From a virus (taxonomy: Duplodnaviria; Caudoviricetes): a DNA stretch of 64,000 bases. Below, one piece after another: positions 3,360 to 63,854 of the stretch (positions are counted from its first letter, which is position 1; the number at the start of each line of letters is the position of its first letter). Under the pieces are notes generated by a model. That model did no database searches. It saw only the letters and a list, made by a program, of their open reading frames with translations, and had not been told where the DNA came from. The DNA lies in the IMG/VR virus record IMGVR_UViG_2684622926_000002, positions 1 through 64,000 of that record, one strand, 5' to 3'. The position numbers and the translations under genes are program-made.

Positions 3360-4184
3360 TTATTCTGTTAGTTGCTTTAATTTACTACAAGCATTTTTAT
3401 GAGACCATTCACAAGCTAGTTGGTAATACTTTTTCGCTAAAGATTTATTTTGCTCAATACCATTACCTTTATCATACATAACCGCTAAATTATATTGGGC
3501 TTCAGCATCACCTTGTTCCGCCGCTTTTGTAAACCAATATAACGCCTTTTGCTTATCTTGTTCTATGCCATCACCATTATCATACATAACGGCTAAATTG
3601 TTTTGCGCCCTAAGCCCACCTTGTTCTGCCGATTTTGTATACCAATAAAACGCCTTTTGTTTATCTTGCTCTATACCATCACCTTTATCATACATAACCG
3701 CTAAACTATATTGTACCCCAACATTACCTTGTTCCGCTAATTTTGTATACCAATATACAGCTTTTTGTTTATCTTGTTCTAAGCCATCACCTTTATCATA
3801 CTTAACCGCTAATTCATATTGGGCGACACTCAAATCTTGCTCTGCCGCTTTTGTATACCAATATATTGCTTTTTGCTTATCTTGTTCTATTCCATCTCCT
3901 TCATCATACATAATCGCTAAACTATACTGGGCATAAGGATTATCTTGTTTTGCTGATTTAGTATAAAAATAAAACGCCTTTTGTTTATCCTGCTTTGTAC
4001 CAAAACCTTCATCATACATAAACGCTAAATGATATTGGCCTTGAGCATCACCTTGCTCTGCATCTTCTTTACAGTAGGTAAAGGCTTTTTCATAATTGTT
4101 CTCATACCAATATTTACTGCATTGATTTGCATACCCAGCAAAAGAAAATAAGAGTGATAATATGACTAATAATCCTTTTTTCAT
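3360..4184 (-). CDS. Secreted Sel1-like repeat protein, copy 3
   Basis: 274 aa; same signal peptide, SLR repeats and Cys caps as the other copies. Confidence 0.93.
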   Translation of the reverse strand: MKKGLLVILSLLFSFAGYANQCSKYWYENNYEKAFTYCKEDAEQGDAQGQYHLAFMYDEGFGTKQDKQKAFYFYTKSAKQDNPYAQYSLAIMYDEGDGIEQDKQKAIYWYTKAAEQDLSVAQYELAVKYDKGDGLEQDKQKAVYWYTKLAEQGNVGVQYSLAVMYDKGDGIEQDKQKAFYWYTKSAEQGGLRAQNNLAVMYDNGDGIEQDKQKALYWFTKAAEQGDAEAQYNLAVMYDKGNGIEQNKSLAKKYYQLACEWSHKNACSKLKQLTE

Positions 4185-4490
4185 AATTCTTCCTTATATT
4201 ATATTTTTATTAACAACAAAAAGTTACTTATACTTTTTAACTGATTTTTAGGGATATTAACTACCAATGTATTTATAAAATTTATACAAAATTATTATTA
4301 GGATTTTTATAAAAAATCCAAGTAAACTATAACGAGTTTTTCACAAAAAATCATTAATAGAATGGCTATTTTGAGCCAAATTAAAAATACATCAACGCTT
4401 TTTAGATCCTGGGGAGAGAACAGAACAAGCACTCGTTGAGTGCTTGCTGTGAAAAATGGTGATTTAAGGTGTTTTTTTGAAATAATTTAA

Positions 4491-5746
4491 TTATTCTGTT
4501 AGTTGCTTTAATTTACTACAAGCCTCTTGAGAATCTCCATCGCAGGCTTGTTGGTAATACTTTTTCGCTAAGGATCTATTTTGCTCTATACCATCACCTT
4601 TATCATGCATAACCGCTAAACGATATTGTGCTTCAGCATTACCTTGCCCGCCGCTTTTGTATACCAATATGCAGCTTTAATTTTATCCTTCAGTGTACCT
4701 TCACCTTCATAATACATAAACGCTAAATTATATTGGGCGATAGCAATATCTTGCTCTGCCGCTTTTGTAAACCAATATAACGCCTTTTGGTTATCTAGCT
4801 CTGTGCCTTCTCCTAAATAATACATAACCGCTAAATTATATTGGGCTTCAGCACCACCTTGTTCCGCCGCTTTTGTAAACCAATATAACGCCTTTTGCTT
4901 ATCTTGTTCTATACCTTCTCCTTCACCATACATAGTTCCTAAATTGTTTTGGGCCTCAGCAAATCCTTGTTCTGCCGATTTTGTATACCAATAAAACGCC
5001 TTTTGTTTATCCTGCTCTGTACCTCTTTCTTTATAATACATAACCGCTAAATTATGTTGTGCCTTAGCCAATCCTTGCTCTGCGGCTTTTGTATACAAAT
5101 AAAACGCTTTTTGCTTATCTTGTTCTATTCCATCTCCTTCATCATACATATACGCTAAATTATGTTGTGCTTCAGCAAATCCTTGCTCTGCGGCTTTTGT
5201 ATACCAATAAAACGCCTTTTGGTTATCTAGCTCTGTGCCTTCTCCTAAATAATACATAACCGCTAAATTATGTTGTGCGTCAGCAAATCCTTGTTCTGCC
5301 GATTTTGTATACCAATAAAACGTCTTTTGTTTATCCTGCTCTATACCTGCTCCTTTATAATACATAATCGCTAAATTGTATTGGGCGTTAGCAAATCCTT
5401 GTTCTGCCGATTTTGTAAACCAATAAAACGCCTTTTGGTTATCCTGCTCTATACGTGTTCCTTCATAATACATAATCGCTAAAGTATATTGAGCATTCGC
5501 TAATCCTTGTTCTGCGGCTTTTGTATACCAATAAAACGCTTTTTGTTTATCCTGCTTTGTACCATAACCTTCATCATACATATACGCTAAATAATATTGG
5601 GCTTCAGCATTACCTTGTTCAGCCACTTTTTTACAGGGAGTAAAGGCTTTTTTATAATTTTCCTTATGCCAATATTTACTGCATTGATTTGCATACCCAG
5701 CAAAAGAAAATAAGAGTGATAATATGACTAATAATCCTTTTTTCAT
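4491..5746 (-). pseudogene. Sel1-like repeat protein, copy 4, frameshifted near the 3' end
   Basis: The ORF 4616..5746 derails at TKAAGKVMLK. The normal tail (AQYRLAVMHDKGDG...ACSKLKQLTE*) continues in another frame to 4491. Confidence 0.8.
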
Positions 5747-29773: not shown

Positions 29774-30445
29774 TTATAAAATTTCCTCTATTGAATTTCT
29801 AAATATTTCATTCTCCTTAATTTCATTAGGAAGTTTCTTAATAAACATATCAAGTTCATCTTTTCCTAAAAACTTTTCAATATTAAATAAGAATAGAGGT
29901 AAATTAGATGATTCTAATGTATTGCTTAGCTTTACTAAATAATTATTTGATAAATATTTTAACGCTATATTTTTATCAATATTTAATACAAAAGAAAATA
30001 TATATGGATATTCCGAACTATATTTAACTAAATATTCTAAATTATCTTTGGTATAATTAAGAGAATTATTATCTATAGAACTGATATACATTTTTAAATC
30101 ATGTTTTTCCTGTTCAATTAATTTAACTCTATCAATTATATCTTCAATTTCTAAAATTTTATTTTCAAACAATATACATTCACCAACTTTGTGAGCTCCA
30201 TCCATATAATCAAATTTAAAACCTTGTTTAAGTATTCCCTTTGGTGCATCTTCTGATAAAAAAAACACTTCATTAGCTATTGTTTTATATCCTTGATCTC
30301 TTGGTGAAATATCAAATTTAAAAGCAATACTCCATCCTTGTTTGCTTTCAGGTAAATATATTTGCGTATATAAAAGTTTAGTTGAAGGCAAAAGCCTTTT
30401 TTCTCCGTCAAATATATTTTTATTCCAATTAATTAAACATTTCAT
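29774..30445 (-). CDS. Putative immunity protein
   Basis: 223 aa, directly after the toxin at 30476..30800; a broken paralog lies at ~37020-37400 (+). Confidence 0.6.
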   Translation of the reverse strand: MKCLINWNKNIFDGEKRLLPSTKLLYTQIYLPESKQGWSIAFKFDISPRDQGYKTIANEVFFLSEDAPKGILKQGFKFDYMDGAHKVGECILFENKILEIEDIIDRVKLIEQEKHDLKMYISSIDNNSLNYTKDNLEYLVKYSSEYPYIFSFVLNIDKNIALKYLSNNYLVKLSNTLESSNLPLFLFNIEKFLGKDELDMFIKKLPNEIKENEIFRNSIEEIL

Positions 30446-30475
30446 AATTTCTATTTATATTTTACTCGATGAGAA

Positions 30476-30805
30476 TTAACACTTGTAACTTTGGTAGGTT
30501 TTTTTATTTAAATCATCAATTTCTATAGCTCTAGATTTTCCTATTCCATCCAAATCATAATCAGCTATACATGCCTTTTTAGCTATATCATTATCTATTT
30601 CAAATCCTACTACACAAAATTTACTATCTCCTTCTAAATGGCCTAATTTATGACCAAATTCTACAGCACCTTCATAACTTTCTGCAAACCATTTAGCCAT
30701 CATTCCTCCACTATCTCCTCCCATGCGCCATCCATTTTCAAGAGTATCAAAATACTCAGCTCTAGTCATAGTTCTAAATAATTCCATCAACCCAAACATT
30801 ACTAT
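30476..30805 (-). CDS. Orphan Rhs toxin (ART-like fold suspected)
   Basis: FGL MELFRTMTRAEY...KWFAESYEGAVEFG...LDGIG. Confidence 0.5.
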   Translation of the reverse strand: MVMFGLMELFRTMTRAEYFDTLENGWRMGGDSGGMMAKWFAESYEGAVEFGHKLGHLEGDSKFCVVGFEIDNDIAKKACIADYDLDGIGKSRAIEIDDLNKKTYQSYKC

Positions 30806-35362: not shown

Positions 35363-35713
35363 TGGAATGTCTACACTTTTTTATACAACAAAATTAAGGA
35401 GTAACTGTTTATTAAATGTTATAGTCGTCAAGTAACCTAATGATGAATGCAGTCGATTGTTGTTGTACCAATATGCATAAGCAGAAAAACGTTGTCGTAG
35501 TACATTGCCTTAGTTCATTCGTATTGGTGAATATCTCATTTTTGACAAATTCAGTTTTAATTGTCTTAAATATCGCTTTAGCAACAGCATTATCGTAAGG
35601 ACATCTTTTATGGCTCAATGAGCGAGTGATACCCAATACCACAAATCAACTATCGAGTAATTGATTATCAAACTCTTTTCCTCGGTCTGAATGAAATAGT
35701 GCGATTGAGGATA
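35363..35713 (-). mobile_element. IS3-family 3' remnant with right IR
   Basis: IR plus ORF 35412..35642 (CPYDNAVAKAIFKTIKTE, rve_2 motif). Confidence 0.85.
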
Positions 35714-36829: not shown

Positions 36830-37400
36830 TGTAGTGTATTTTGATGTAGATGATGCAGTAGCAAAAGTTGCTTATAAAGCAGATCACTTAGATGGAATAG
36901 GTTCTGTGAGGGCTATTGAGGTTGCTGATTTAAATGGAAAGACTGAAGTTAAAAAGTTAATTCAATTAAAGTAGAGTGTAAATAATAAAATCACTATTTA
37001 ATTGGGATAGGACTATATTTGATGGAGAAAAAAGACTTTTACCATCAACGAAGGTTTTACATACTCAAATTTATTTACCAGAGTTAAAAGAAAGTTGGAT
37101 TATCGTTTTTAAATTTAATATTTCGCCGAGAGATTAGAGATATAGGACAATAGCAGAGGAAGAATTTTTTTGTCAGAAAAAGCGCCGAAAAAAATATTAA
37201 AAGAAGGGTTCGAATTTAACTTTATGGATGGTCCAAACATTATTGGAGAATGTATATTGTTTCAAGAAAAACTTATTTAAATGGACGATGTAATGGAAAA
37301 AATTAAATTCAACGAACAGGAAAACATAAATAAAAAATGCTCATTAACTACGTGAATAATAATTCTTTTAGTTATCCAACAAATCAACTTAGGTTTTAAT
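36830..37400 (+). pseudogene. Inverted, decayed paralog of the 30476/29774 toxin-immunity pair
   Basis: FDVDDAVAKVAYKADHLDGIGSVRAIEVADLN and DGEKRLLPSTKVLHTQIYLPE fragments. Confidence 0.75.
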
Positions 37401-37453
37401 TAAATAGAGTTCGGATTAGCCATACAATTTTCTTTTGTGTAAAAAATTGTTAA

Positions 37454-37921
37454 AAACATAGCCATAAAGTATCTATCAAACAAGTAGGTGATAATATTTC
37501 TTTTGAAAAAGTACCGACTGTCAATGGTAAATCTGTAATTACTGATTTAACAGATGTTAATAATAAAATTAACTCAATAAATACAAATTTAAATATTCTC
37601 AATAATCGTACTTATGTTGTTGAATCATACCATAATGATAACGCGTGGTATCAAGTTTATTCAGACGGATATATTGAACTATCTGATGCTCAGTATATAG
37701 AAACGAAGAGCATTAATGCGGTAAATGGAACATTTATTAATTTATTAAAACCAATGAAATCATATCATTATGGAATAAGTGTTGATAAAGTTAATAACGG
37801 ACCATGGGCACAAACGGAGTTTGCGTATGCTGAGGTTTATCCAACTGGATTTTGGCTTGCTTCCTACACATCAAGTATTCCAGGAGCAGTGATGGTTCGT
37901 TGGACAGTAAGAGGATATTAA
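37454..37921 (+). CDS. Headless tail-fibre C-terminal cassette (gp53-like tip); no start codon
   Basis: Open frame of 155 codons: QVGDNISFEKVPTVNGKSV...WYQVYSDGYIE...VRWTVRGY*, followed directly by its own chaperone gene. Confidence 0.7.
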   Translation, partial: KHSHKVSIKQVGDNISFEKVPTVNGKSVITDLTDVNNKINSINTNLNILNNRTYVVESYHNDNAWYQVYSDGYIELSDAQYIETKSINAVNGTFINLLKPMKSYHYGISVDKVNNGPWAQTEFAYAEVYPTGFWLASYTSSIPGAVMVRWTVRGY

Positions 37922-37922
37922 C

Positions 37923-38255
37923 ATGACTATTACAAATCAAGAATATGCAGAAATGGCTATTAAAGCTAATAAAGAGGGGAAAGAGTTAAAATACGAAAAC
38001 GGCAAATTAACTCTCGTTGCTCCCGAACCAATGAAGTTTACAGAAGAGCAAATAATCTTTCAAAATCAGCAAATTAAAGAATCTTTATTCAAAGAAGCTA
38101 ACAGCGAAATAGATATACTCAACGATAAAATAGAGTTCGACGAGGCGACAGATGACGATGTTGCAATGTTAAAAAAATGGAAATTGTACCGAATTAACTT
38201 TAAGAAATTGGACGCAACAGATATTAAGGCCATATTCCCGATAAAGCCCATTTAG
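37923..38255 (+). CDS. Tail fibre assembly chaperone
   Basis: C-terminal LKKWKLYR...KLD..DI..IFP.KP motif. Confidence 0.8.
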   Translation: MTITNQEYAEMAIKANKEGKELKYENGKLTLVAPEPMKFTEEQIIFQNQQIKESLFKEANSEIDILNDKIEFDEATDDDVAMLKKWKLYRINFKKLDATDIKAIFPIKPI

Positions 38256-38779
38256 GGCTTTTCAGGAAATATTACAGCAATATTTGATACATCAATGCGA
38301 TTTAGCAAAACTCGATATTTTTTCCACGCGTTCAATTTGTCTTCATCACCGTTTTCTGACATGTCCAAATCTATCGCGTCTTGTAGTATGGATATATTTT
38401 CATTAGCCTCATTTAATAGTGAGTTTTTTAACATTTTATTCTGTTTTACTTTAAATGCGTTTTGGTCATCTTCATCTAAAACCCATTTTTTACCGTTCCA
38501 TTTTGAAAACTGAAACGGCTCCAGTGATGTAAAACCTTCTTTTATTTCTCCTAAATAATCGATTTTAACCGATTCTTTAGTTTCAATATCGAAAACTATT
38601 TCATCACGATGATCCTCAACTAAAACCCATGTACCATTTTTCTCGCATGGGTGAAAGCCTTCTTTAAACTCTGGCGCAATCCGTAATGCATTATCTGGTG
38701 GTAACGTATCATCGTTAGCGTCTAATTGATGTGTATATGGTTTTAGTGCATTTGTGTTATCAAAATAATAATTAATCAT
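38252..38779 (-). CDS. tfa: Tail fibre assembly chaperone (lambda Tfa family)
   Basis: W.LVEDHR....D......I.YLG.I...T...P.QF.KWNG..W; L.AWKKYRVLLNRID. Confidence 0.9.
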   Translation of the reverse strand: MINYYFDNTNALKPYTHQLDANDDTLPPDNALRIAPEFKEGFHPCEKNGTWVLVEDHRDEIVFDIETKESVKIDYLGEIKEGFTSLEPFQFSKWNGKKWVLDEDDQNAFKVKQNKMLKNSLLNEANENISILQDAIDLDMSENGDEDKLNAWKKYRVLLNRIDVSNIAVIFPEKP

Positions 38780-38803
38780 AATTTTTCCTATTTAATTTCT
38801 TAC

Positions 38804-38825
38804 CTACTCGCCAAGTAGGTAGTGC
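38804..38825. repeat. 22-bp perfect inverted repeat CTACTCGCCAAGTAGGTAGTGC, partner at 39322-39343
   Basis: Read directly; extends to 40/44 identity with only synonymous mismatches. Confidence 0.9.
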
Positions 38826-39057
38826 AGAAGATGACGCCATCAGAAATATTTGGGCCAGATATGGCAATTTTATAGTATCGGCATTAGATGCCACAGGAGC
38901 ATTTAATATTAATGCAATCGCGTCTCCGGCGTACGATGGCAATGCGCATGGTTGGCACGTAGATATTCTATTTGATGCATCACGAGTTGTGCCGACAGCA
39001 CATGAGAATCGCCCGATTAATATTGGGTTAACACCAGTAATATACCTTGGTGTTTAG
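38806..39057 (+). CDS. Silent, inverted alternative C-terminus of the tail fibre
   Basis: TRQVGSAEDDAIRNIWARYG...FDASRVVPTAHENRPINIGLTPVIYLGV*; no start codon; its stop overlaps the stop of 39054..40694. Confidence 0.85.
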   Translation, partial: TRQVGSAEDDAIRNIWARYGNFIVSALDATGAFNINAIASPAYDGNAHGWHVDILFDASRVVPTAHENRPINIGLTPVIYLGV

Positions 39058-40694
39058 ACGCCCAAATAAATCGTAGGGGTCAGAGCAATATTCAGTGGTC
39101 GATTTTCATGAGCAGTTGGAACAAACCATGATGCATTAAATAAAACCGATTGCTCTGGGTAATCAGAATCCGACACGTGACAAGTAACTGGATAATTTCT
39201 ATTATTCAATCCAGAACCATCGTCATTTCGAAATTTTCTGAAGACACCGTTCGGCACGGTATCTTTCCAGTGAAAAATATGGTGAATTTCGCCATACAGA
39301 TTTCTAATTGCGTCATCCTCAGCACTACCTACTTGGCGAGTAGTTCCATTTGCAGGTCTTTCAAAAAATCCTCTACCATCTGGTGCAAACGCGGACGGTA
39401 CATTAATATATTGCTGACCATCAATTTCTTTAATTGTTATTTGATGATCACGTTTATAATTAGCAGATAACCCATTTAAAGCACGACCTTGTGGTGAACT
39501 TAACAGATAGTTATCACCGTTTCTAAAATACCAACCAAACGGCAATTCACCAGCACGGAACGGCATCAATCGAAATTCACCGATTGCATCTTTAAAGACT
39601 ACATGATCACCTACTGAGTAGGTAGGTACGCCATTTACTACACTTTTAGTTGCAGGTAAAGCTCTGGCAATATCGGCTGAAATATTATTTGTAGTTATTT
39701 GCTCTACCCAATTTTCCCAAAATCCGCCTTCAGTACTACCTCTATAATTTCTAATAAATTGACGACCTGATTTATAGAGTGTATATATTTGTACACAGCT
39801 TTGGTTGCCCTCGGTCAAAGTCGGTAAAATTATCAATGACCCTGCCTCTTGAATCGGGTAACCTAGTTCCACGAGCGCCTTAGCATCATGTTTTTGATAA
39901 TATATTCCTTTAGCCAATGCTCCTAGATGGTTGGGAGGTATATTATCTAAATCGCCGCAATATCGCATAATTGTCTGCGGGTCAATAGTTGACGCCCACT
40001 CTTTTGCATTGTCAGCACTATTTTTTGCGGCTACCGCTGATGATTTTGCATTAACTTCAGATGTATTTGCGGATTTAGCACTATTTGCCGAGTTTATAGC
40101 TGACTGGTTAGCCTCTTTTGCCGAATTATTTGCATTATCTGCATAAATTTTCGCAGTATCTGAACTTGTAGTTGCAACACTTGCTGCATCTGTTGCTGTT
40201 ATCGCCGATTTTGATGCTAATTGTGAACTTGTTGCTGCTTCAGCAGCACTTACTTTCGCCGCATCGGCAGATGATTTCGCATTGGTTTCTGATGTATTAG
40301 CATGGTTAGCACTATCTGCTGATTTTTTCGCTGATGTATATGAATCTATTGCTGATTTTATTGCTTCATTTCGAGCATCAAAAATCTGCTTTAAAAATTC
40401 AGGAGTTAAGTCACTTTCTTCGGGATTAATTAAATAATCGTTTAATGTACCATCTACTGAATCAGAATAAATATTGATTTTTCCAAGTCGCTTTTTGGGG
40501 AAACCGTTAATGATTAAGCTAACTTCATATTCACATGGCAATACATTCATTGAATATTTGCCGTTCTCAGACACTTGAAATGTTTGCGTTTGAGTTAATA
40601 CTTTGCTAGTCGTTTTTTTTGCATATAGTTCGATAGTGCAGTCATTGATAATTTGACCTGCACCATCCGTTAAAATTCCTGATATTTTTGCCAT
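39054..40694 (-). CDS. Side tail fibre protein
   Basis: Stf-like N-terminus (ISGILTDGAGQII..CTIEL.A), Ala/Ser repeats, knob-like domain and collar-like C-terminus. Confidence 0.9.
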   Translation of the reverse strand: MAKISGILTDGAGQIINDCTIELYAKKTTSKVLTQTQTFQVSENGKYSMNVLPCEYEVSLIINGFPKKRLGKINIYSDSVDGTLNDYLINPEESDLTPEFLKQIFDARNEAIKSAIDSYTSAKKSADSANHANTSETNAKSSADAAKVSAAEAATSSQLASKSAITATDAASVATTSSDTAKIYADNANNSAKEANQSAINSANSAKSANTSEVNAKSSAVAAKNSADNAKEWASTIDPQTIMRYCGDLDNIPPNHLGALAKGIYYQKHDAKALVELGYPIQEAGSLIILPTLTEGNQSCVQIYTLYKSGRQFIRNYRGSTEGGFWENWVEQITTNNISADIARALPATKSVVNGVPTYSVGDHVVFKDAIGEFRLMPFRAGELPFGWYFRNGDNYLLSSPQGRALNGLSANYKRDHQITIKEIDGQQYINVPSAFAPDGRGFFERPANGTTRQVGSAEDDAIRNLYGEIHHIFHWKDTVPNGVFRKFRNDDGSGLNNRNYPVTCHVSDSDYPEQSVLFNASWFVPTAHENRPLNIALTPTIYLGV

Positions 40695-40755: not shown

Positions 40756-43700
40756 TTAGTCAGGTAGAAAACCGTTTGAGTTTTTCATTAGAAAAACTAG
40801 GGAGTTAAAAGATAATGTATATTTAATTGAAACCGAAGCAGGTTTATTAATAGTTAATGATATTTTAACTCGCTCACCATTGGAAAATGGAGGAATAGGT
40901 AAAATTAAATTACGAAATCCCACCCCTTTTATGTAAAATTTATTAACTTCATAGGGGTATTGATCATTAAATAAAAAACGCATACTCCCACGAATATTTT
41001 CAAAGTCAGATCCCAATCCCATTACCCCTCCGACAACTTTAATTTCTTCGATAAAACATAATTTTTGCCACTCTCCAGATGCTTCTATGTTCATTACATG
41101 AACGTTTTGGTTTGGGTTTGTCTCTACAATCCTAATCTCTTTCTTGAAAAGTTTTGCTGAAAGAACGTTACCCCTTATTTGATTAACATCCAAAGTACCT
41201 CTTATTTGACAATTTTTGTTAATGATTACATTATTTAGTTCTCCAGAATTAGCATAAATATTTCCTGAGATATTGGCTTTACGAGCATTGACGGTGCCAT
41301 CAGGCAGTAACTCAAATACTGGAGGTGTCCCTGCGCTTATTACACTACCGGCAACCATTTTCCCGCCCGTTATTAGCGGCGCTTTGATTTCTGTACCAGC
41401 AATTAATCTATCACCTCGCATTGTACCCGTTGCAATTAAATCGCCATCAATGAACATTTTTGGCTCTATCCACTGTGCACCGTTGTATAGCCTAGCTTCT
41501 GAGTGCGAAACTTTACCGTCAGAGGCTAGTGAGTAAATGATTAATGTCGTATCACGAGCGGGATAAAAGCCAAATTCACGATAAAACATCTGCGTTGCAT
41601 TATCATTAGCAGGAAATTTACCATCACCTGTTTGAATTCTAAATAGACCACCTGCGCCATTTTCTGCAACTAATGTTCGAGTGTTAGCAATAAACATTTC
41701 TGAACGCCCAACAACATTAACCGCATTTACACCATACCAATATTCGGTATCTGGGGTGCAGTCAACATCTGTTAATGACATGGCGCGACCCAAGTAGTTG
41801 GTCTGTGCCTCGACTTCTGCTTTGGTGGTGCCTTTATAAAATTCAAACTGAGTACCTAAGCTAGATGTTGCTGTCATAACTGGGCGAACTGCAATATTAA
41901 ATGCACTTGGCGTTAATACTAATCCTGAAGGTTTTGCTGGTGGTAATATTGAAAATGCGATAGTTCTTTCATCACCTAATCGCCCGTCTTCTCCCACTCC
42001 TCTGACTGTTGCATTGAATTTACCTTGTTGCAAGTCTGATAGGTAATATTCAGTATTATTAACAGTTTCACGACTAATTAGTTTATCATCACGATAGATT
42101 TTTACTTCGAATCTCAAGTTTTGAATCGTGCGAGGTGTAGACCATGATAATCGTGCTTGATATAGATCAGATTCAGGGATAATTTCAGTCTGCAGCTGCT
42201 CTACAGGCGGAATTAACCAACTAAAAATAGAACCGCTTTCCTCTTCAAATTTAGCGCCGTTATCAACAATTTCTTCTTTCCTAGTTTCATGTTCTAGCGC
42301 AGTGATAGAGTAAGTGCCATCACTGTTTTCTGTAATGGAAAGAGCTTTGAATAATCGTGGCTTGATTTTATTGTCATATAGTCCCCAAACAGAATAATCA
42401 TCAACACTAACACTATTTACCAAAACAAGCTGATTGGGTTTGACTTGTGCTTGAATTTTAATTTTATGTAGTTGCATATTGGTATCAGTTACACTTAAAT
42501 ACGCATTTTTCATATTTTTAATGTCAATATCACGGTCTAACTTAATAGTACTACCATTTGCCTCTAAAATTCGTCCACCGATAGTCGTACCTGCAAAATC
42601 ATTATCAGTAATACCAATAATATCCCCAGGCAAATGTCTAATACCTTCACGTCCTACATTGAATGTAACGGTTTGTGTCTCTAATTTTTCGGTTTGAATT
42701 AGCCATTTCCCAACTCTATGTGCCTGCCCTCTCGATGTACAGCCAAATGCATCGACTTGAGCAACATTCAACCCGAATCGTTTAATTAACTCATCATCAG
42801 CAACGTATTCGGTTGTGGTCTCCCAGTTATTATTGGGGTCAATATAACGTACGTGCACAGCTGTATGCCGTGATTTTTGCGCGGCTGACGTGTAGTTGAA
42901 CTGACCATCGACAACGTTCGCATTTGAATAAATCGCCACAGGGTCACTTGGTCTATCCATAACGGCTGTATATTGTGTACCGTCCCAAATCGGCATCGCC
43001 CGAAATATCGAGCATAAATCATGAATAACCTCATACGCCTGTCGTTGCTCGGTAATATAGCAATTACAGGTAAATCTTGGCTCTTTGCCACCGAAACCGT
43101 CATCGACTAACTGATCACAATATTGAGAAATGGTATATAACGCAAATTTATCGACACCGAATTGACTGATGCGATTCCCCATACCGTAACGTGTGTTGGT
43201 CAAAATATCGTAAAATATCCAAGCTGGGTTATTTGTCCAAGCAAGCTTGAAATTTCCTGACCAAAAACCTTTATATTCTCTCGTCTCAGGGTCGTAATTG
43301 TCAGGCACTTTAACTATCATACCTTTGATTAAATAGTTTCGGCGAGGTACACCACTAAATTGCGATGAATCGAATTTTAGTCCAACTACCGCAGTATTTG
43401 GATATGAAAATTTGGTATCATAAATTTCTGTGTACGAACTCCACAGCGTATTATTAGCTAATAATGATGACGTGCTATCTTGCGTTCTGCGCACTACTCG
43501 AATGTTAAACGGTTTCGGAGGTAAATCATATAAAATAACCGATGTTAAATACTGTGAGCGGGTTTTTTTATCGATTAAATCAACAGTTTTTACCGTTTCC
43601 CACATGTGGCCCGTACCGATTTGAATTGCCATTGACACCGATGTTCGGTTAATGTTGCCTTTTTTGTCCGTTGAGCTTAATGACTGTACACCAACTGTAA

Positions 43701-44040
43701 CCCGAACTCTGTCAATATTGGGGTCGGTAATGGTTCGTACAATCGGGGTTGATGCCTTTACCTCAAGATTAACAGGCACTTCGTTTTCCGTTGCTAGAAA
43801 ACTCTCAAGCGGTGCTTGTGACTGAACGCCAGCCGTCCATTCGACTTCAACTCCCTTGAAGTTGTATGAACCGTTTGGTGCTTGAATTGGCGTATCGTTT
43901 AAAAAAACGCTTTGTAGGCCATTCACTGGTCCTTCTATCTGTCCTTCACACAACAAATCAATAATACTCAGTTGCTGATTTGATTTTAAGTTATCTTGCG
44001 CCTCTGTGGGCGTTTTAGCCTTTTTTTTACCTTTACCCAT
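40756..44040 (-). CDS. Host-specificity/central tail tip protein (lambda J family)
   Basis: MGKG....EA.DNLKS.Q.LSIIDLLCEGQIEG; YPNTAVVGL.FDS.QF..VP.RNY.I.G; NPAW..YDILT..RYG.G. Confidence 0.95.
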   Translation of the reverse strand: MGKGKKKAKTPTEAQDNLKSNQQLSIIDLLCEGQIEGPVNGLQSVFLNDTPIQAPNGSYNFKGVEVEWTAGVQSQAPLESFLATENEVPVNLEVKASTPIVRTITDPNIDRVRVTVGVQSLSSTDKKGNINRTSVSMAIQIGTGHMWETVKTVDLIDKKTRSQYLTSVILYDLPPKPFNIRVVRRTQDSTSSLLANNTLWSSYTEIYDTKFSYPNTAVVGLKFDSSQFSGVPRRNYLIKGMIVKVPDNYDPETREYKGFWSGNFKLAWTNNPAWIFYDILTNTRYGMGNRISQFGVDKFALYTISQYCDQLVDDGFGGKEPRFTCNCYITEQRQAYEVIHDLCSIFRAMPIWDGTQYTAVMDRPSDPVAIYSNANVVDGQFNYTSAAQKSRHTAVHVRYIDPNNNWETTTEYVADDELIKRFGLNVAQVDAFGCTSRGQAHRVGKWLIQTEKLETQTVTFNVGREGIRHLPGDIIGITDNDFAGTTIGGRILEANGSTIKLDRDIDIKNMKNAYLSVTDTNMQLHKIKIQAQVKPNQLVLVNSVSVDDYSVWGLYDNKIKPRLFKALSITENSDGTYSITALEHETRKEEIVDNGAKFEEESGSIFSWLIPPVEQLQTEIIPESDLYQARLSWSTPRTIQNLRFEVKIYRDDKLISRETVNNTEYYLSDLQQGKFNATVRGVGEDGRLGDERTIAFSILPPAKPSGLVLTPSAFNIAVRPVMTATSSLGTQFEFYKGTTKAEVEAQTNYLGRAMSLTDVDCTPDTEYWYGVNAVNVVGRSEMFIANTRTLVAENGAGGLFRIQTGDGKFPANDNATQMFYREFGFYPARDTTLIIYSLASDGKVSHSEARLYNGAQWIEPKMFIDGDLIATGTMRGDRLIAGTEIKAPLITGGKMVAGSVISAGTPPVFELLPDGTVNARKANISGNIYANSGELNNVIINKNCQIRGTLDVNQIRGNVLSAKLFKKEIRIVETNPNQNVHVMNIEASGEWQKLCFIEEIKVVGGVMGLGSDFENIRGSMRFLFNDQYPYEVNKFYIKGVGFRNLILPIPPFSNGERVKISLTINKPASVSIKYTLSFNSLVFLMKNSNGFLPD

Positions 44041-51990: not shown

Positions 51991-52290
51991 TTATTTTCCA
52001 ATTAAGTTAGATAATGCGTCGAATAAAGTGACTGGTTGCTTTTTCTCTTCTCTAAATTTAATTAAACAGTCGTCGAAAGAGACTTTTCCACCTTGTGAGC
52101 GGTATATAGATGAAGAAATTTGAGCTGCATGCCAGTCATTTCGCTCGTCACTGATAGGATTTAATTTATCAAATGCGACCCAGTAGTAAAATTCACTAGC
52201 TGAAAGTGATTGCTCAAGTTCAGCTAGTGTTTTACCAAGCCTTAATGCTAGCTTTAATTTAAAGAAAAGCTCTGGTTCATTTTCTACTTT
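51991..52290 (-). CDS. Tail assembly chaperone T (the -1 frameshift extension of G)
   Basis: Open frame KVENEPELFFKLKLALRLGKTLAELEQSLSASEFYYWVAFDKLNPISDERND...; slippery A AAA AAG immediately before the G stop. Confidence 0.85.
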   Translation of the reverse strand, partial: KVENEPELFFKLKLALRLGKTLAELEQSLSASEFYYWVAFDKLNPISDERNDWHAAQISSSIYRSQGGKVSFDDCLIKFREEKKQPVTLFDALSNLIGK

Positions 52291-52667
52291 TTTTCAGCCT
52301 CTTTGAGAGGATCGTTATTTAACTCTATCAATTCGAGGGCTTTATTCAGTACTCGAGTATGAACAGGACCATAACTTTCTACTAACGCCTCCATTTCTTT
52401 ACTGTCATTACTATTGAAAATAAGATTACCGTTTTTATCAATTACGGTTGCAGCAAATAATAAAGTTTCAGCTTTGATATTAAGTAAGTCTTTTTCTTGC
52501 TCAGTTAATGAGTCATCTTTTGACGTTTTTTCAATGGATTTTACATAACGATAAAAATCAATATGTAACGGTTCTCGAACACAAATTGTTGTATTCCATT
52601 CTGCCACCTGAAACTCTTTAGTGCGAAAGCCTGAATTTTTAGCAGTGATAATTTTCTTTAAATTCAT
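52284..52667 (-). CDS. Tail assembly chaperone G
   Basis: GFR....V.EW....VREP; YGPVH.R.L..ALEL; ends AEKK*. Confidence 0.88.
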   Translation of the reverse strand: MNLKKIITAKNSGFRTKEFQVAEWNTTICVREPLHIDFYRYVKSIEKTSKDDSLTEQEKDLLNIKAETLLFAATVIDKNGNLIFNSNDSKEMEALVESYGPVHTRVLNKALELIELNNDPLKEAEKK

Positions 52668-52687
52668 TATGATGTTTTCTCCACAAA

Positions 52688-53158
52688 TTAATTAGCTGGA
52701 GTCGGTTCATTAAACACAAATGAGCCTTTTACTTTGAATGCGAATGAACCAGTTAAAATGCCATTCTTTTCACCTTTAAACTCAAAATTGGTAACACGCG
52801 CAATCCAGTCAACAGAACTACCATCCTCATGTTGGATTTTAAATGCGTAATTATTACCTGACTCATAGGATTCTCTTAAAGCTTTTTGACCATCATTTGC
52901 AATAACAAAATTAACGTTCATTGATACAGTTGGTTCAGCCGGTAATCCACTAATGGTTTCTTTGGTACGAGATGAAAGTGTTGAGACATCAATCTCTTCA
53001 CCTTCTGGTGATGTCATGGAATAGTCGGTTACCGTACACTCTAAACTTAATTTTGGGGTGGTATCAGTGATGAATTTTGTTGAAGGATCTTTACTAATAA
53101 ATACACCGATATCTCTAGTTTTGGTATATTCGCTTTGTGATTTTTGTACTTCAGTCAT
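52688..53158 (-). CDS. Major tail tube protein
   Basis: EEIDVSTL.S..KE.ISGL..EPT.S...NF....GQ.AL......F.I. Confidence 0.88.
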   Translation of the reverse strand: MTEVQKSQSEYTKTRDIGVFISKDPSTKFITDTTPKLSLECTVTDYSMTSPEGEEIDVSTLSSRTKETISGLPAEPTVSMNVNFVIANDGQKALRESYESGNNYAFKIQHEDGSSVDWIARVTNFEFKGEKNGILTGSFAFKVKGSFVFNEPTPAN

Positions 53159-53445
53159 GTTAGTTTCTCCAAAAATAAAAAAAACCGCAATTAAGCGGCA
53201 AATAGGTTAATTTTTACTTACTGATTATTAAAGGTATAGCTCTTATGATGCTCGATAGAGTTATATATTTAATTCGTAGTTAGGGTGACTTTTAACATTG
53301 AAATGTTTCAATTGTTATTAGTATATTATTGCATCTATGTTTCCTATAGATTAAAAATCTATAAATATCATTATGCAAATCAAATAGTTAAATTATATAA
53401 ACATGGTTTATTTGTATAGAGTAAAAGTTAAAAACTAAGCTCAAT

Positions 53446-53703
53446 TTAATTGATTACGCTAATTATTTTTTTTATTGCCCTTTTATCTTGATTGCACATC
53501 TCAATAACATTCAAGAGATGCTCGTTATAGCTAACACTATCGCCGAATGTCATTTTTTGTGGTGGTAAATTTGCTATGCAATCACTGAGCAGATTTGCTG
53601 GAATTGGCTGATTCACGTAAACTTTTCGCTCGGTTGTACAGGCTACCAGAGATAGACATAGGCACGAACTGATTAGCGCAATCATTATATTTAAGTTGTT
53701 CAT
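53446..53703 (-). CDS. Rz1-like outer-membrane spanin (lipoprotein)
   Basis: Lipobox LSLVAC, P.PANLL..C, CN.DK.AI; overlaps the i-spanin gene. Confidence 0.8.
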   Translation of the reverse strand: MNNLNIMIALISSCLCLSLVACTTERKVYVNQPIPANLLSDCIANLPPQKMTFGDSVSYNEHLLNVIEMCNQDKRAIKKIISVIN

Positions 53704-53950
53704 TGATCTGCTCCTGACGTGAAATAGATTGATTTTCTAGCTCACGTTTTGATTGTTCGTTAGCGGCAATAATCTGATTATTTCTCTCGATAGTTTGCTG
53801 TAATTGTTGCATCTGTGAAGATAATTCAGTCATTTTCTGTTTTGCTGTTTGTTCATCTTCAAAACATTGATAAGCAAAATAAATGCTAAAAATAACAATA
53901 ATTAATAATATTATCGGAGACAGCTTATAAAGTAGTTTTAATTTATCCAT
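53582..53950 (-). CDS. Rz-like inner-membrane spanin
   Basis: N-terminal TM segment, coiled coil, CA...VP. Confidence 0.8.
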   Translation of the reverse strand: MDKLKLLYKLSPIILLIIVIFSIYFAYQCFEDEQTAKQKMTELSSQMQQLQQTIERNNQIIAANEQSKRELENQSISRQEQINEQLKYNDCANQFVPMSISGSLYNRAKSLRESANSSKSAQ

Positions 53951-54390
53951 CAGACTAACCCATTGACGTAAACTGTTTTACCGCCCTGTTTAACCGCAGT
54001 TAACACGATTTGGCGGTTATTGCTCGGACTAAATCCAATATGTACCCATTGGTTGTGCTCCTGGATTAATTTGTCAAACTGCACACCGGCATCAATCAAA
54101 CGTTGGCAAATCTCTTTAGGCGTTCCGTATGAGCTATGAAAATCAACGGCAAGCCCTTTGGTGTGCGCGCTAGTTGGTGAACCGCCTACTTGAGTATTGA
54201 GTGCCGGACAACGATAGCCTGATGTGATAATAATCGGGAAACCTAAAACTTTTCTTACGCACTCCAATTTATTGGCAGTTAGCTTGATATTGGGCATTAA
54301 TTGAACTGGTACAGAATTGTTTATTTTGGCTCTCTCGCCTGTGGTTGAGCGGGTAAATTCCTCAAGCGTAAAATGTTCGGTTAGTTGCAT
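53950..54390 (-). CDS. Endolysin, peptidase M15A family
   Basis: HFTLEEF, SGYRC..LN..VGG...SAH..G.AVD, FD.LI.E...WVH. Confidence 0.92.
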   Translation of the reverse strand: MQLTEHFTLEEFTRSTTGERAKINNSVPVQLMPNIKLTANKLECVRKVLGFPIIITSGYRCPALNTQVGGSPTSAHTKGLAVDFHSSYGTPKEICQRLIDAGVQFDKLIQEHNQWVHIGFSPSNNRQIVLTAVKQGGKTVYVNGLV

Positions 54391-54698
54391 TAGTTATCTC
54401 CTTTGGCTTTTTTAATCAGTCTTTCTTCCAGCGCTTTAATCAGTGTTGCGCCCGACCAACCTGCTAACCCAGCTATACCGCCTGCTAGTTCAAAATCCCA
54501 GTTAAAATAACTAGCAGCAAGAACCACAAGAGAACCAGCAAAAGTTGATACACATATCTGACCTATCAACGTACCAACTCTGAATTTACCACCATTTATA
54601 ACATGATAAGAATAGCTTGCTAATGAACCGAGCGAAGTAATAATAAATAGGTATACAACAACCGTCCAGTTGACGTTGTTTGGGTCTTTTATTGGCAT
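54390..54698 (-). CDS. Holin
   Basis: 102 aa with 3 TM segments, directly upstream of the endolysin. Confidence 0.85.
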   Translation of the reverse strand: MPIKDPNNVNWTVVVYLFIITSLGSLASYSYHVINGGKFRVGTLIGQICVSTFAGSLVVLAASYFNWDFELAGGIAGLAGWSGATLIKALEERLIKKAKGDN

Positions 54699-59004: not shown

Positions 59005-59335
59005 ATTGTTAACTCAATTCTGGTTTTGTTGGAAAAATAACATTGATATCCGATGCGTCTAATTTTTTTAGACTAATTCGATATAGTTTCCATTTTTTTA
59101 ACATTGTTACATCTTTATCAGTCGCCTGGTCGAACTCTATTTTATCGATGAGTATATCTATTTCGTTGTTAGCTTCATTCAATAACGATTCTTTAATTTG
59201 CTGATTTTGAAAATTATTTGCTCGTCCGTAAACCCCATTGTTTCAGGATTAACAAGAACTAATTTACCATTTTCACATTTTAACTCTTTCCCCTTTTTAT
59301 TAGCTTTAATAGCCATTTCATCTGCCATATTACAT
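59005..59335 (-). pseudogene. Tail fibre chaperone pseudogene (copy of 37923..38255)
   Basis: EMAIKANKKGKELKCENGKL...EQIIFK; frameshifted. Confidence 0.8.
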
Positions 59336-63236: not shown

Positions 63237-63854
63237 TTATAAAAATTTATTTTTCAACATCTCTAATTCAATCCCGGAACTGCTTTTTATTGCGGCAAAA
63301 TACCCTGTTAAAAAATCCTCACCACTTTTTTTCAGTTTATCAATTGCATTCCAATTGGTTTTAAATCTTTTGGCAATATCAACAATCGATAATGGTTTAA
63401 CCATGTAGAGTTTCTCCTCTCTGATACCTCGGGCAATTTTTTTAGAATTTGGCAAATCATGAAAACCTTGCGCTTGTCTTTTCCATTCCTCTTTAACACA
63501 GCCATCCACAGCTATATAGTCAGTAACCTCTTGTTTTTCACCCCAATAATAGAGTATCAAGGTATTATATATATCTTTGGATTGAGGTATGTTCAAAGAT
63601 AAGATAGCCAAAAGTGCATCGTTAATTAGCATTGCATCATTATCAGAACAGACTTCTTTAAGTTTTTTTGGCTGTGAATGGTAATATAATAGTGTATTTT
63701 GTTTTAAATAAAGGTTTTTTCTTGACCAATTGCCAAAACGCATACATACATCAGTAATATCATAATCAGCTTTAAATCTCACTTTTGCGATCGACTTATC
63801 CGCTGTTTTTGGTTTTTCATCTTCTTTATATTTATACTCTGTCACTATTTTCAC
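63237..63854 (-). CDS. Late-gene antitermination protein Q (lambdoid)
   Basis: DI.DV..RFGNWS...CSDNDAMLIND...LILYY...IA.RF.......GEDFL.GY; located at the head of the late operon. Confidence 0.7.
   Translation of the reverse strand: MKIVTEYKYKEDEKPKTADKSIAKVRFKADYDITDVCMRFGNWSRKNLYLKQNTLLYYHSQPKKLKEVCSDNDAMLINDALLAILSLNIPQSKDIYNTLILYYWGEKQEVTDYIAVDGCVKEEWKRQAQGFHDLPNSKKIARGIREEKLYMVKPLSIVDIAKRFKTNWNAIDKLKKSGEDFLTGYFAAIKSSSGIELEMLKNKFL

Follow-up and report, generated by a model that had tools for sequence, protein, structure and literature searches.

Fibre switching by DNA inversion has been textbook material since the phages Mu and P1, and to our knowledge the enzymes named there are always serine invertases. 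Gin, Cin, Pin and Min are serine recombinases (PF00239) that act at sites of ~26 bp with a 2-bp core and have a Fis-bound enhancer, and in the R-type carotovoricin Er the killing range is changed by fibre inversion with a Pin-like invertase. A tyrosine recombinase, Rci (~384 aa), serves the R64 shufflon, whose sfx sites are 19 bp long with a 7-bp spacer and one conserved arm. Here we analyse the tail-fibre locus at positions 37454-40694 of a 64,000-nucleotide stretch of DNA (positions 1-64,000 of IMG/VR record IMGVR_UViG_2684622926_000002), which is referred to below as the window. The source and its relatives are placed in the genus Gilliamella, a bee-gut bacterium, by the names on the matched relatives, and the source genome (G000; 3.54 Mb) is 99.98% complete. 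We consider it very probable that this family of loci is a fibre switch run by a tyrosine recombinase. The explanation as a whole, in which a family of two-level invertible tail-fibre loci common in Gilliamella is driven by such an enzyme and the window copy has decayed, is likely.

Among known systems, the Rin shufflon in prophages of Bifidobacterium comes closest; it has been presented as the first tyrosine invertase encoded by a phage (Mavrich et al. 2018, PMC6109161). Its predicted invertase, a tyrosine recombinase that lacks an arm-binding domain, lies beside cassettes of the receptor-binding protein, and a second inverted locus without a flanking recombinase is possibly served in trans (PMC6109161). 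Rin, a predicted system, is the only phage tyrosine invertase that we found in the searchable literature. Tail-fibre and Tfa genes are among the inversion targets and neighbours of a systematic survey, the available passages of which describe no such system (PMC9881135). Like Rin, the Gilliamella loci vary a receptor-binding protein by inversion of C-terminal cassettes, and an armless tyrosine recombinase is found beside headless cassettes in L071, L072, G026, G008, G017 and a second locus of the source genome on contig C8, but is gone from the window. Unlike the Gilliamella loci, Rin belongs to actinobacterial hosts and to TP901-1-like receptor-binding proteins without Tfa chaperones, and its rix site is an asymmetric 11-bp repeat (TTCCCTAACCC), whereas the Gilliamella site is a 6-7-6 dyad. 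The Gilliamella loci further differ from Rin in that large cassettes each bring a chaperone, two switches are nested, and the enzyme is close to lambda Int. The enzyme lineage probably differs from that of Rin as well.

A first-pass annotation of the window, made by a model from the sequence alone, had drawn a parallel to Mu G, p15B Min and carotovoricin Er. The parallel holds for the function but not for the enzyme type, which is an armless lambda-Int-like tyrosine recombinase rather than a serine recombinase. With Mu G, P1 C, e14 P and p15B Min the Gilliamella loci share a constant fibre part, convergent modules of tip and chaperone, an invertase gene at the edge and, as the presumed outcome, an alternative host or target range. 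They differ from the Gin, Cin, Pin and Min systems in that the Gilliamella genomes searched are without PF00239, the recombinase is of the tyrosine type and the spacer is 7 bp. The R64 (IncI) shufflon is similar in using a tyrosine recombinase and several invertible segments to exchange the C-terminal end of PilV. This is a pilus adhesin encoded on a plasmid, whereas the Gilliamella enzyme, which has lambda Int as its closest counterpart, would act on a phage fibre. With the integrases of lambda, HK022, 434 and HK97 it shares the core-binding and catalytic domains and the six catalytic residues. Unlike lambda Int, the enzyme would recombine two simple inverted core sites within a gene rather than attP and attB, and the product would be inversion rather than integration. 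The Gilliamella family would be a second, unrelated-looking tyrosine-recombinase solution to fibre switching, in Gram-negative fibres of the lambda and P2 types.

Layout of the fibre locus and inversions in relatives

The side tail-fibre gene (39054-40694, minus strand) encodes 546 aa, with a PF08400 N-terminus and a PHROG tail-fibre assignment. Comparison with its relatives divides it into a constant part (residues 1-360), a middle part termed Mid (361-452) and tip A (453-546), the tip expressed in the window's orientation. Tip B (38806-39057, plus strand) is headless and silent; it lacks a start codon, comprises 81 aa after the QVG crossover point and lies tail to tail with tip A, the stop codon of the fibre gene overlapping its frame. 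The tail-fibre assembly chaperone Tfa (38252-38779, minus strand; PF02413, E 5e-26) is located outside the A/B segment and is therefore able to serve both tips. Cassette C combines another headless silent tip on the plus strand (frame 37454-37921, of which 37484-37921 is 145 aa counted from VGD) with a second chaperone, Tfa' (37923-38255, plus strand; PF02413, E 4e-11), and tip C is used as the expressed fibre C-terminus in P0004 and P0005. This gene order and the headless nature of cassettes B and C had been given in the first-pass annotation, and our analysis of open reading frames (ORFs) and profiles confirms them. The perfect 22-bp inverted repeat that it reported between cassette B and the gene (38804-38825 / 39322-39343) is present as well, within a longer repeat of 44 nt and 91% identity (38804-38847 / 39300-39343), and both of its dyads are found in the sequence. 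The tail-to-tail junction of tips A and B forms a further repeat (60 nt, 77%), because the two tips have a common C-terminal motif; this motif may explain how one chaperone serves both.

Strain comparison reveals alternative orientations and supports the earlier proposal, placing the locus in a family of fibre loci with several invertible cassettes. In the metagenome contig L072, positions 4152-4691 (540 bp) match window 38804-39343 in inverted orientation with 93% identity, the sequence on either side is collinear, and the overlaps correspond precisely to the 44-bp repeat. Mid and a 99% identical counterpart of tip B are there joined in one open frame (P0121), and a tip A-like cassette is silent. 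A larger inversion separates G026 and G008, which carry the same element at the same aroC-prmB site. The G026 fibre ends in a tip C-type module while Mid and its tip are silent, and the arrangement in G008 is reversed. This segment of 1.85 kb (L045 7182-9038 against L046 6840-8675) has flanks of 97-99% identity and overlaps of 19-20 bp at the joints. Moreover, both orientations occur at 100% identity within the G008 assembly: one joint is on contig C19 and its alternative on C4, each with a 19-bp overlap, and the 19-bp site forms the very start of contigs C4 and C41. Such paired joints are the expected assembler output from a population holding both orientations. These comparisons indicate that the inner and the outer inversion are both real in relatives, and their joints fall at a 19-bp site bearing an in-frame GTAGGT, where the crossovers had been placed before.

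A second, self-contained fibre switch is found in the source genome at G000:C8:80114-83205 (L054 8115-11209), among ordinary host genes. It consists of a P2-type fibre (PF12571), two convergent Tfa genes, a silent Gp53-like tip and an armless recombinase, and is bounded by two perfect sites, ACCTAC ttatgag GTAGGT. In its G015 orthologue the module of tip and Tfa is in the silent position. The two loci were considered as a clean inversion and rejected, since the partner module differs (54% identity); the module of tip and TfaC8a is nevertheless expressed in one and silent in the other, which is supportive. Two other candidates were also set aside. The difference between L072 and L073 was rejected as a third site-specific inversion because its ends are within homologous Tfa 5' regions, and it appears to reflect homologous recombination or assembly ambiguity. 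P0004 and P0005, in which a fibre N-terminus of 91-94% identity is followed by tip C, were rejected as an inverted isoform and not counted as evidence of inversion, because L070, the contig of P0005, has a fixed, non-invertible arrangement; a true arm-bearing integrase follows it there.

Recombination sites, recombinase and proposed mechanism

Reading every GTAGG of the locus and of its relatives in the coding sense, we derived a common core of 19 bp, which consists of ACCTAC, a 7-bp spacer and GTAGGT. The half-sites are thus a 6-bp inverted pair, and the right one is read in frame as Val-Gly. The outer site inside the fibre gene (39609-39627, minus strand; ACCTAC ctactca GTAGGT in the coding sense) is a perfect match, its GTAGGT encoding V361-G362, and a partner with the identical spacer adjoins the recombinase gene in L071. 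The inner site inside the gene (39327-39345, minus strand; AACTAC tcgccaa GTAGGT in the coding sense) encodes TTRQVG, has AACTAC as its left half and is the border of the segment that is inverted in L072. Silent cassette B is headed by ACCTAC tcgccaa GTAGGT (38802-38820, plus strand), which has the same spacer as the inner gene site and a perfect left half-site even though this lies in non-coding sequence. The outer partner at the head of cassette C (37471-37489, plus strand; ATCTAT caaacaa GTAGGT) is degenerate, with the right half-site alone kept; its intact counterpart in L071 is GCCTAC ctactca GTAGGT. Partners have matching spacers in the window, L072, G017 and G016, with three different spacer sequences among them, and both spacers of the outer pair of L071 are ctactca. 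The tip-only (A/B-type) architecture with matched spacers in G017 and G016 uses tcgacag. The A/B-type architecture is also seen in G024, with irregular spacing at the silent cassette, and no gene-side partner site was found in that genome.

The 19-bp form is specific to fibre switches. Perfect ACCTAC-N7-GTAGGT occurs exactly four times in the whole 3.54-Mb genome, against ~0.1 copies expected from base composition by our own arithmetic, and all four copies are at fibre-switch borders (two in the window locus and two around the switch on C8). Likewise, every perfect match to ACCTAY-N7-GTAGGT in G026, G017, G015 and G008 is located at a fibre switch. The first-pass annotation had proposed an in-frame AGTAGGT core in all four sites of the window. 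The in-frame GTAGGT crossovers stand, but the 7-mer itself is weak when taken alone (14 copies on the two strands of the window, where roughly 8 would be expected), and the unit is refined here to the 19-bp core. That the sites are unlike hix, as had been stated, agrees with their 6-7-6 dyad form. Cassette C had been named as another partner of the gene, and this is upheld only in part. The GTAGGT half is kept, but the left half and the spacer are degenerate, and the repeat list contains many chance pairs that are as good as this repeat (27 nt, 74%). It is the comparison with relatives alone which indicates that the head of cassette C was once a recombination site.

Complete loci carry a tyrosine recombinase gene of 293-300 aa at the edge of the segment, beside the outermost cassette, and it adjoins the switch in seven loci (G026, G008, G017, L071, L072, the C8 locus of the source genome and its G015 orthologue). 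The window has no such gene, and the tests of domains and catalytic residues were therefore run on the C8 paralogue and on the enzymes of the relatives. The statement of the first-pass annotation that no invertase was visible is correct for the window, where PF00589 has no match, but the genome does hold a tyrosine recombinase. A genome search for a recombinase, which had been suggested as a check, found no serine type and an intact tyrosine recombinase at G000:C8:82309-83205, which is 82-83% identical to the L071 and L072 enzymes. The recombinase has the domains PF22022 and PF00589 and aligns to lambda Int residues 69-355 (query from residue 11; E 3e-51), with the equivalents of R212, K235, H308, R311, H333 and Y342 all conserved. 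Only ~10 residues precede the core-binding domain, and the arm-binding domain (lambda Int residues 1-64) is absent. Identity to the integrases of HK022, 434 and HK97 is 38-40% over the core-binding and catalytic domains. The enzyme is plainly a descendant of a lambda-type integrase that lost the arm domain. Lambda-type core sites (attP/attB) have a 7-bp overlap region, which the 7-bp spacer would fit.

Only Gilliamella yielded members of the fibre-linked clade (60-98% identity, 289-311 aa, no PF09003), and dozens of recombinase variants are present in Gilliamella metagenomes. Arm-bearing (PF09003) integrases are at most 43% identical to this clade. Armless relatives of 41-46% identity in Salmonella and Sodalis are not beside annotated fibre genes, and for this reason the link to fibres is not claimed beyond Gilliamella. 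For annotation, it follows from the fibre-linked clade that short "integrases" beside fibre genes should not be called prophage integrases. We also noticed a second clade of armless tyrosine recombinases (~49% identical) at L072 1049-1939 and L076 3655-4545. In L072 its gene is a few small ORFs upstream of the fibre-linked recombinase, and a similar tandem pair is found in a Sodalis prophage.

In the proposed mechanism, the inner pair of sites (spacer TCGCCAA) bounds a 0.54-kb segment with two tail-to-tail tips, and its inversion would replace tip A, the C-terminal 94 aa, by the 81 aa of tip B, while the position of the downstream chaperone, which would serve both tips, is unchanged. In complete relatives ~2.2 kb lie between the outer sites (spacer CTACTCA), and inversion of this stretch would exchange Mid, tip and Tfa for tip C and Tfa'. 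The two gene-internal sites are direct repeats with different spacers. The spacer pattern suggests that a gene site pairs only with a cassette site of the same asymmetric spacer, which would lead to inversion without deletion and keep the nested switches independent; the inner pair of L071 is the one exception to this rule. Partner choice by spacer is known from heterospecific lox and FRT sites. The Gilliamella sites are simple 19-bp sequences within a reading frame, and the nested switches appear to be separated by the spacer alone, so they may represent a natural example of a heterospecific-site logic for which engineered lox and FRT variants otherwise provide most examples, and a compact candidate tool. 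A bolder version, in which an armless lambda-Int-type enzyme is a master invertase of nested and independent switches, its single C8 copy acts in trans on the A/B switch of a headless lambda-type tailocin, partners are chosen purely by identity of the 7-bp spacer, and the target range of two tail-derived weapons is set in this way, is speculative and in our view rather unlikely.

State of the window copy and rival explanations

The fibre of L071 is 94% identical to that of the window, and L071 has the full set of fibre, silent tip, Tfa, Tfa', tip C, site and recombinase gene. A tblastn search of the window with two recombinases for a remnant of the gene gave chance matches only (E>1). The sequence at the recombinase's place (36840-37483, plus strand) is instead a diverged paralogue of window 29940-30604 in an Rhs/immunity island. 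Window 36840-37486 and 29940-30604 are inverted copies (72% over 669 bp) of an immunity-like gene with its downstream sequence, and they flank ~6 kb of Rhs / orphan-toxin island. The similarity between the paralogues stops exactly at the border of spacer and right half-site in cassette C. G037, the nearest relative (J 94% identical), has a non-invertible fibre and keeps the uninterrupted form, in which ...ATCTATCAAACAA is followed by TTAGTT...; the window is cut right after CAAACAA and joined to the GTAGGT of cassette C. These alignments indicate that Rhs-island sequence has taken the place of the recombinase gene and of the C site's spacer and outer half-site. Tyrosine recombinases cleave at the border of spacer and half-site, and we infer that the junction may have been left by an illegitimate exchange involving a pseudo-site. 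A C-terminal fragment of an IS3-family transposase (35412-35642) lies between the fibre locus and the Rhs fragments, and it fits decay of this edge.

Tip C and Tfa' are stranded in the window, because the C site keeps the right half-site only and its spacer matches the outer spacer of the gene at 3/7 positions. Inversion of cassette C, which the first-pass annotation had envisaged, is therefore not to be expected in this copy. The spacers of the inner pair are identical and its sites structurally intact. It is likely that C is dead and A/B structurally intact in the window, and that the A/B switch still flips in this strain is at best an even chance. Neither the B-on joint nor a degenerate pattern for either orientation had an exact match in Joint Genome Institute (JGI) metagenome contigs; the element is absent from that collection, so this result is uninformative.

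Several findings weigh against a recombinase-driven switch, or against its present use in the window. There is no recombinase gene in cis, and A/B flipping would need the C8 recombinase in trans, which is plausible because the enzymes of the clade (64-99% identical) all use the same half-sites. The assembly of the source genome shows one orientation only, with no contig in the alternative one, and the G008 assembly may be mixed and not derived from a single clone. In G016 and G024 the A/B-type architecture is present although no recombinase homologue was found at E<=1e-40, so the architecture can persist without the enzyme or with another. Matched spacers are not kept in every copy, those of the inner pair of L071 differing at 2/7 positions. 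Because the TTRQVG / SVG peptide is conserved, protein-level constraint also falls on the right half-site and on part of the spacer, which explains some of the repeat. Finally, the inversion between L072 and L073 has its ends in similar 5' parts of two Tfa genes, away from the sites.

It could be argued that the locus is a fossil, descended from an invertible system and now locked with tip A on, B and C never being expressed. The loss of the recombinase gene and half of the C site, the single orientation in the assembly and the position of the cluster against a decaying Rhs / IS region speak for a fossil, and we give this possibility nearly the same weight as its opposite. It does not sit easily with inner sites that are intact with identical spacers, a left half-site of B that is perfect despite its non-coding position, a tip B frame that is uninterrupted and 99% identical to a tip in use elsewhere, or the intact paralogous recombinase with the same half-sites in the genome. 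Alternatively, the segments might be inverted by general RecA recombination across the 44-bp repeat and the similar Tfa genes, without a dedicated enzyme. The ends of the L072/L073 inversion in homologous Tfa 5' regions and the architecture of G016 and G024, where no recombinase homologue was found, speak for RecA; but the L072/L073 difference may be an arbitrary assembler choice across a repeat, the joints in G008 and G026 are within 19-20 bp, too short for efficient exchange, a recombinase is adjacent in seven loci, and a 6-7-6 dyad with perfect half-sites is not explained by homology alone. Inversion by RecA is accordingly quite improbable.

Two further explanations have very little probability. 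The cassettes could be debris of mosaic fibre evolution, with no switch at all and with repeats due to protein conservation only. It is true that fibre genes are highly mosaic, that tip C is fixed and non-invertible in L070 and in a remnant on contig C9 of the source genome, and that the C repeat of the window is at chance level. Debris would not account for both orientations at 100% identity in the G008 assembly, for inversions in relatives with collinear flanks and 19-bp joints, for a site confined to switch borders genome-wide, or for half-sites conserved at non-coding positions, and we find it hardly credible. Least probable of all is a serine-invertase system of the Gin/Cin/Pin/Min type whose invertase is elsewhere or was missed. 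Its attraction is the layout, since the constant part and the convergent tip and chaperone modules are arranged as in the Mu G and P1 C segments. A search for PF00239, however, gave 0 matches in G000, whereas 12/14 control genomes gave matches, and the family is also absent from G008, G016, G017, G024 and G026, five other genomes carrying such loci. In addition, the sites do not have the hix/gix form, and it is a tyrosine recombinase that sits in the invertase position. A fibre switch run by a tyrosine recombinase, with a decayed copy in the window, therefore remains the preferred explanation.

Carrier and neighbouring features

The lambda J-like tip attachment protein (40756-44040, minus strand) is immediately upstream of the fibre gene. 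Read along the minus strand, the cluster has the antiterminator Q (63237-63854) upstream, followed by two tailspike/fibre-like genes and then a lysis cassette of holin (54390-54698), endolysin (53950-54390) and Rz spanin (53582-53950). Genes for the major tail protein, a chaperone, the tape measure, M, L, K, I, J, the fibre and Tfa come directly after the lysis cassette (lysis and adjoining tail genes, 52284-54698). No capsid, portal or terminase genes were found among the ORFs scanned in the window. The order is that of an F-type tailocin, as in F-type pyocins. From its gene content, the carrier would probably be a lambda-type tail lacking a head, of the F-type tailocin kind, or a defective prophage, and because of this the switch would set which neighbouring strains are bound. 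If the tailocin reading is true, the switch sets the killing range rather than the host range, which bears on strain competition in the honey-bee gut.

Other fragments related to the fibre locus are scattered in the same genome. A frameshifted Tfa'-like pseudogene (window 59021-59319; 72-80% aa identity to 37923-38255) sits between the two tailspike/fibre-like genes, which are of a 596-aa GDSL esterase type and a 676-aa pectate-lyase / NAGPA type. An orphan fibre remnant is found beside recQ at G000:C9:496175-497010 (L002 1224-2250). It comprises a 230-aa frame, in which a fragment of the constant part is joined to a tip C-type end, and a Tfa'-type chaperone. This remnant has 82% DNA identity to cassette C of the window, and the same remnant is present in G015 and G037.

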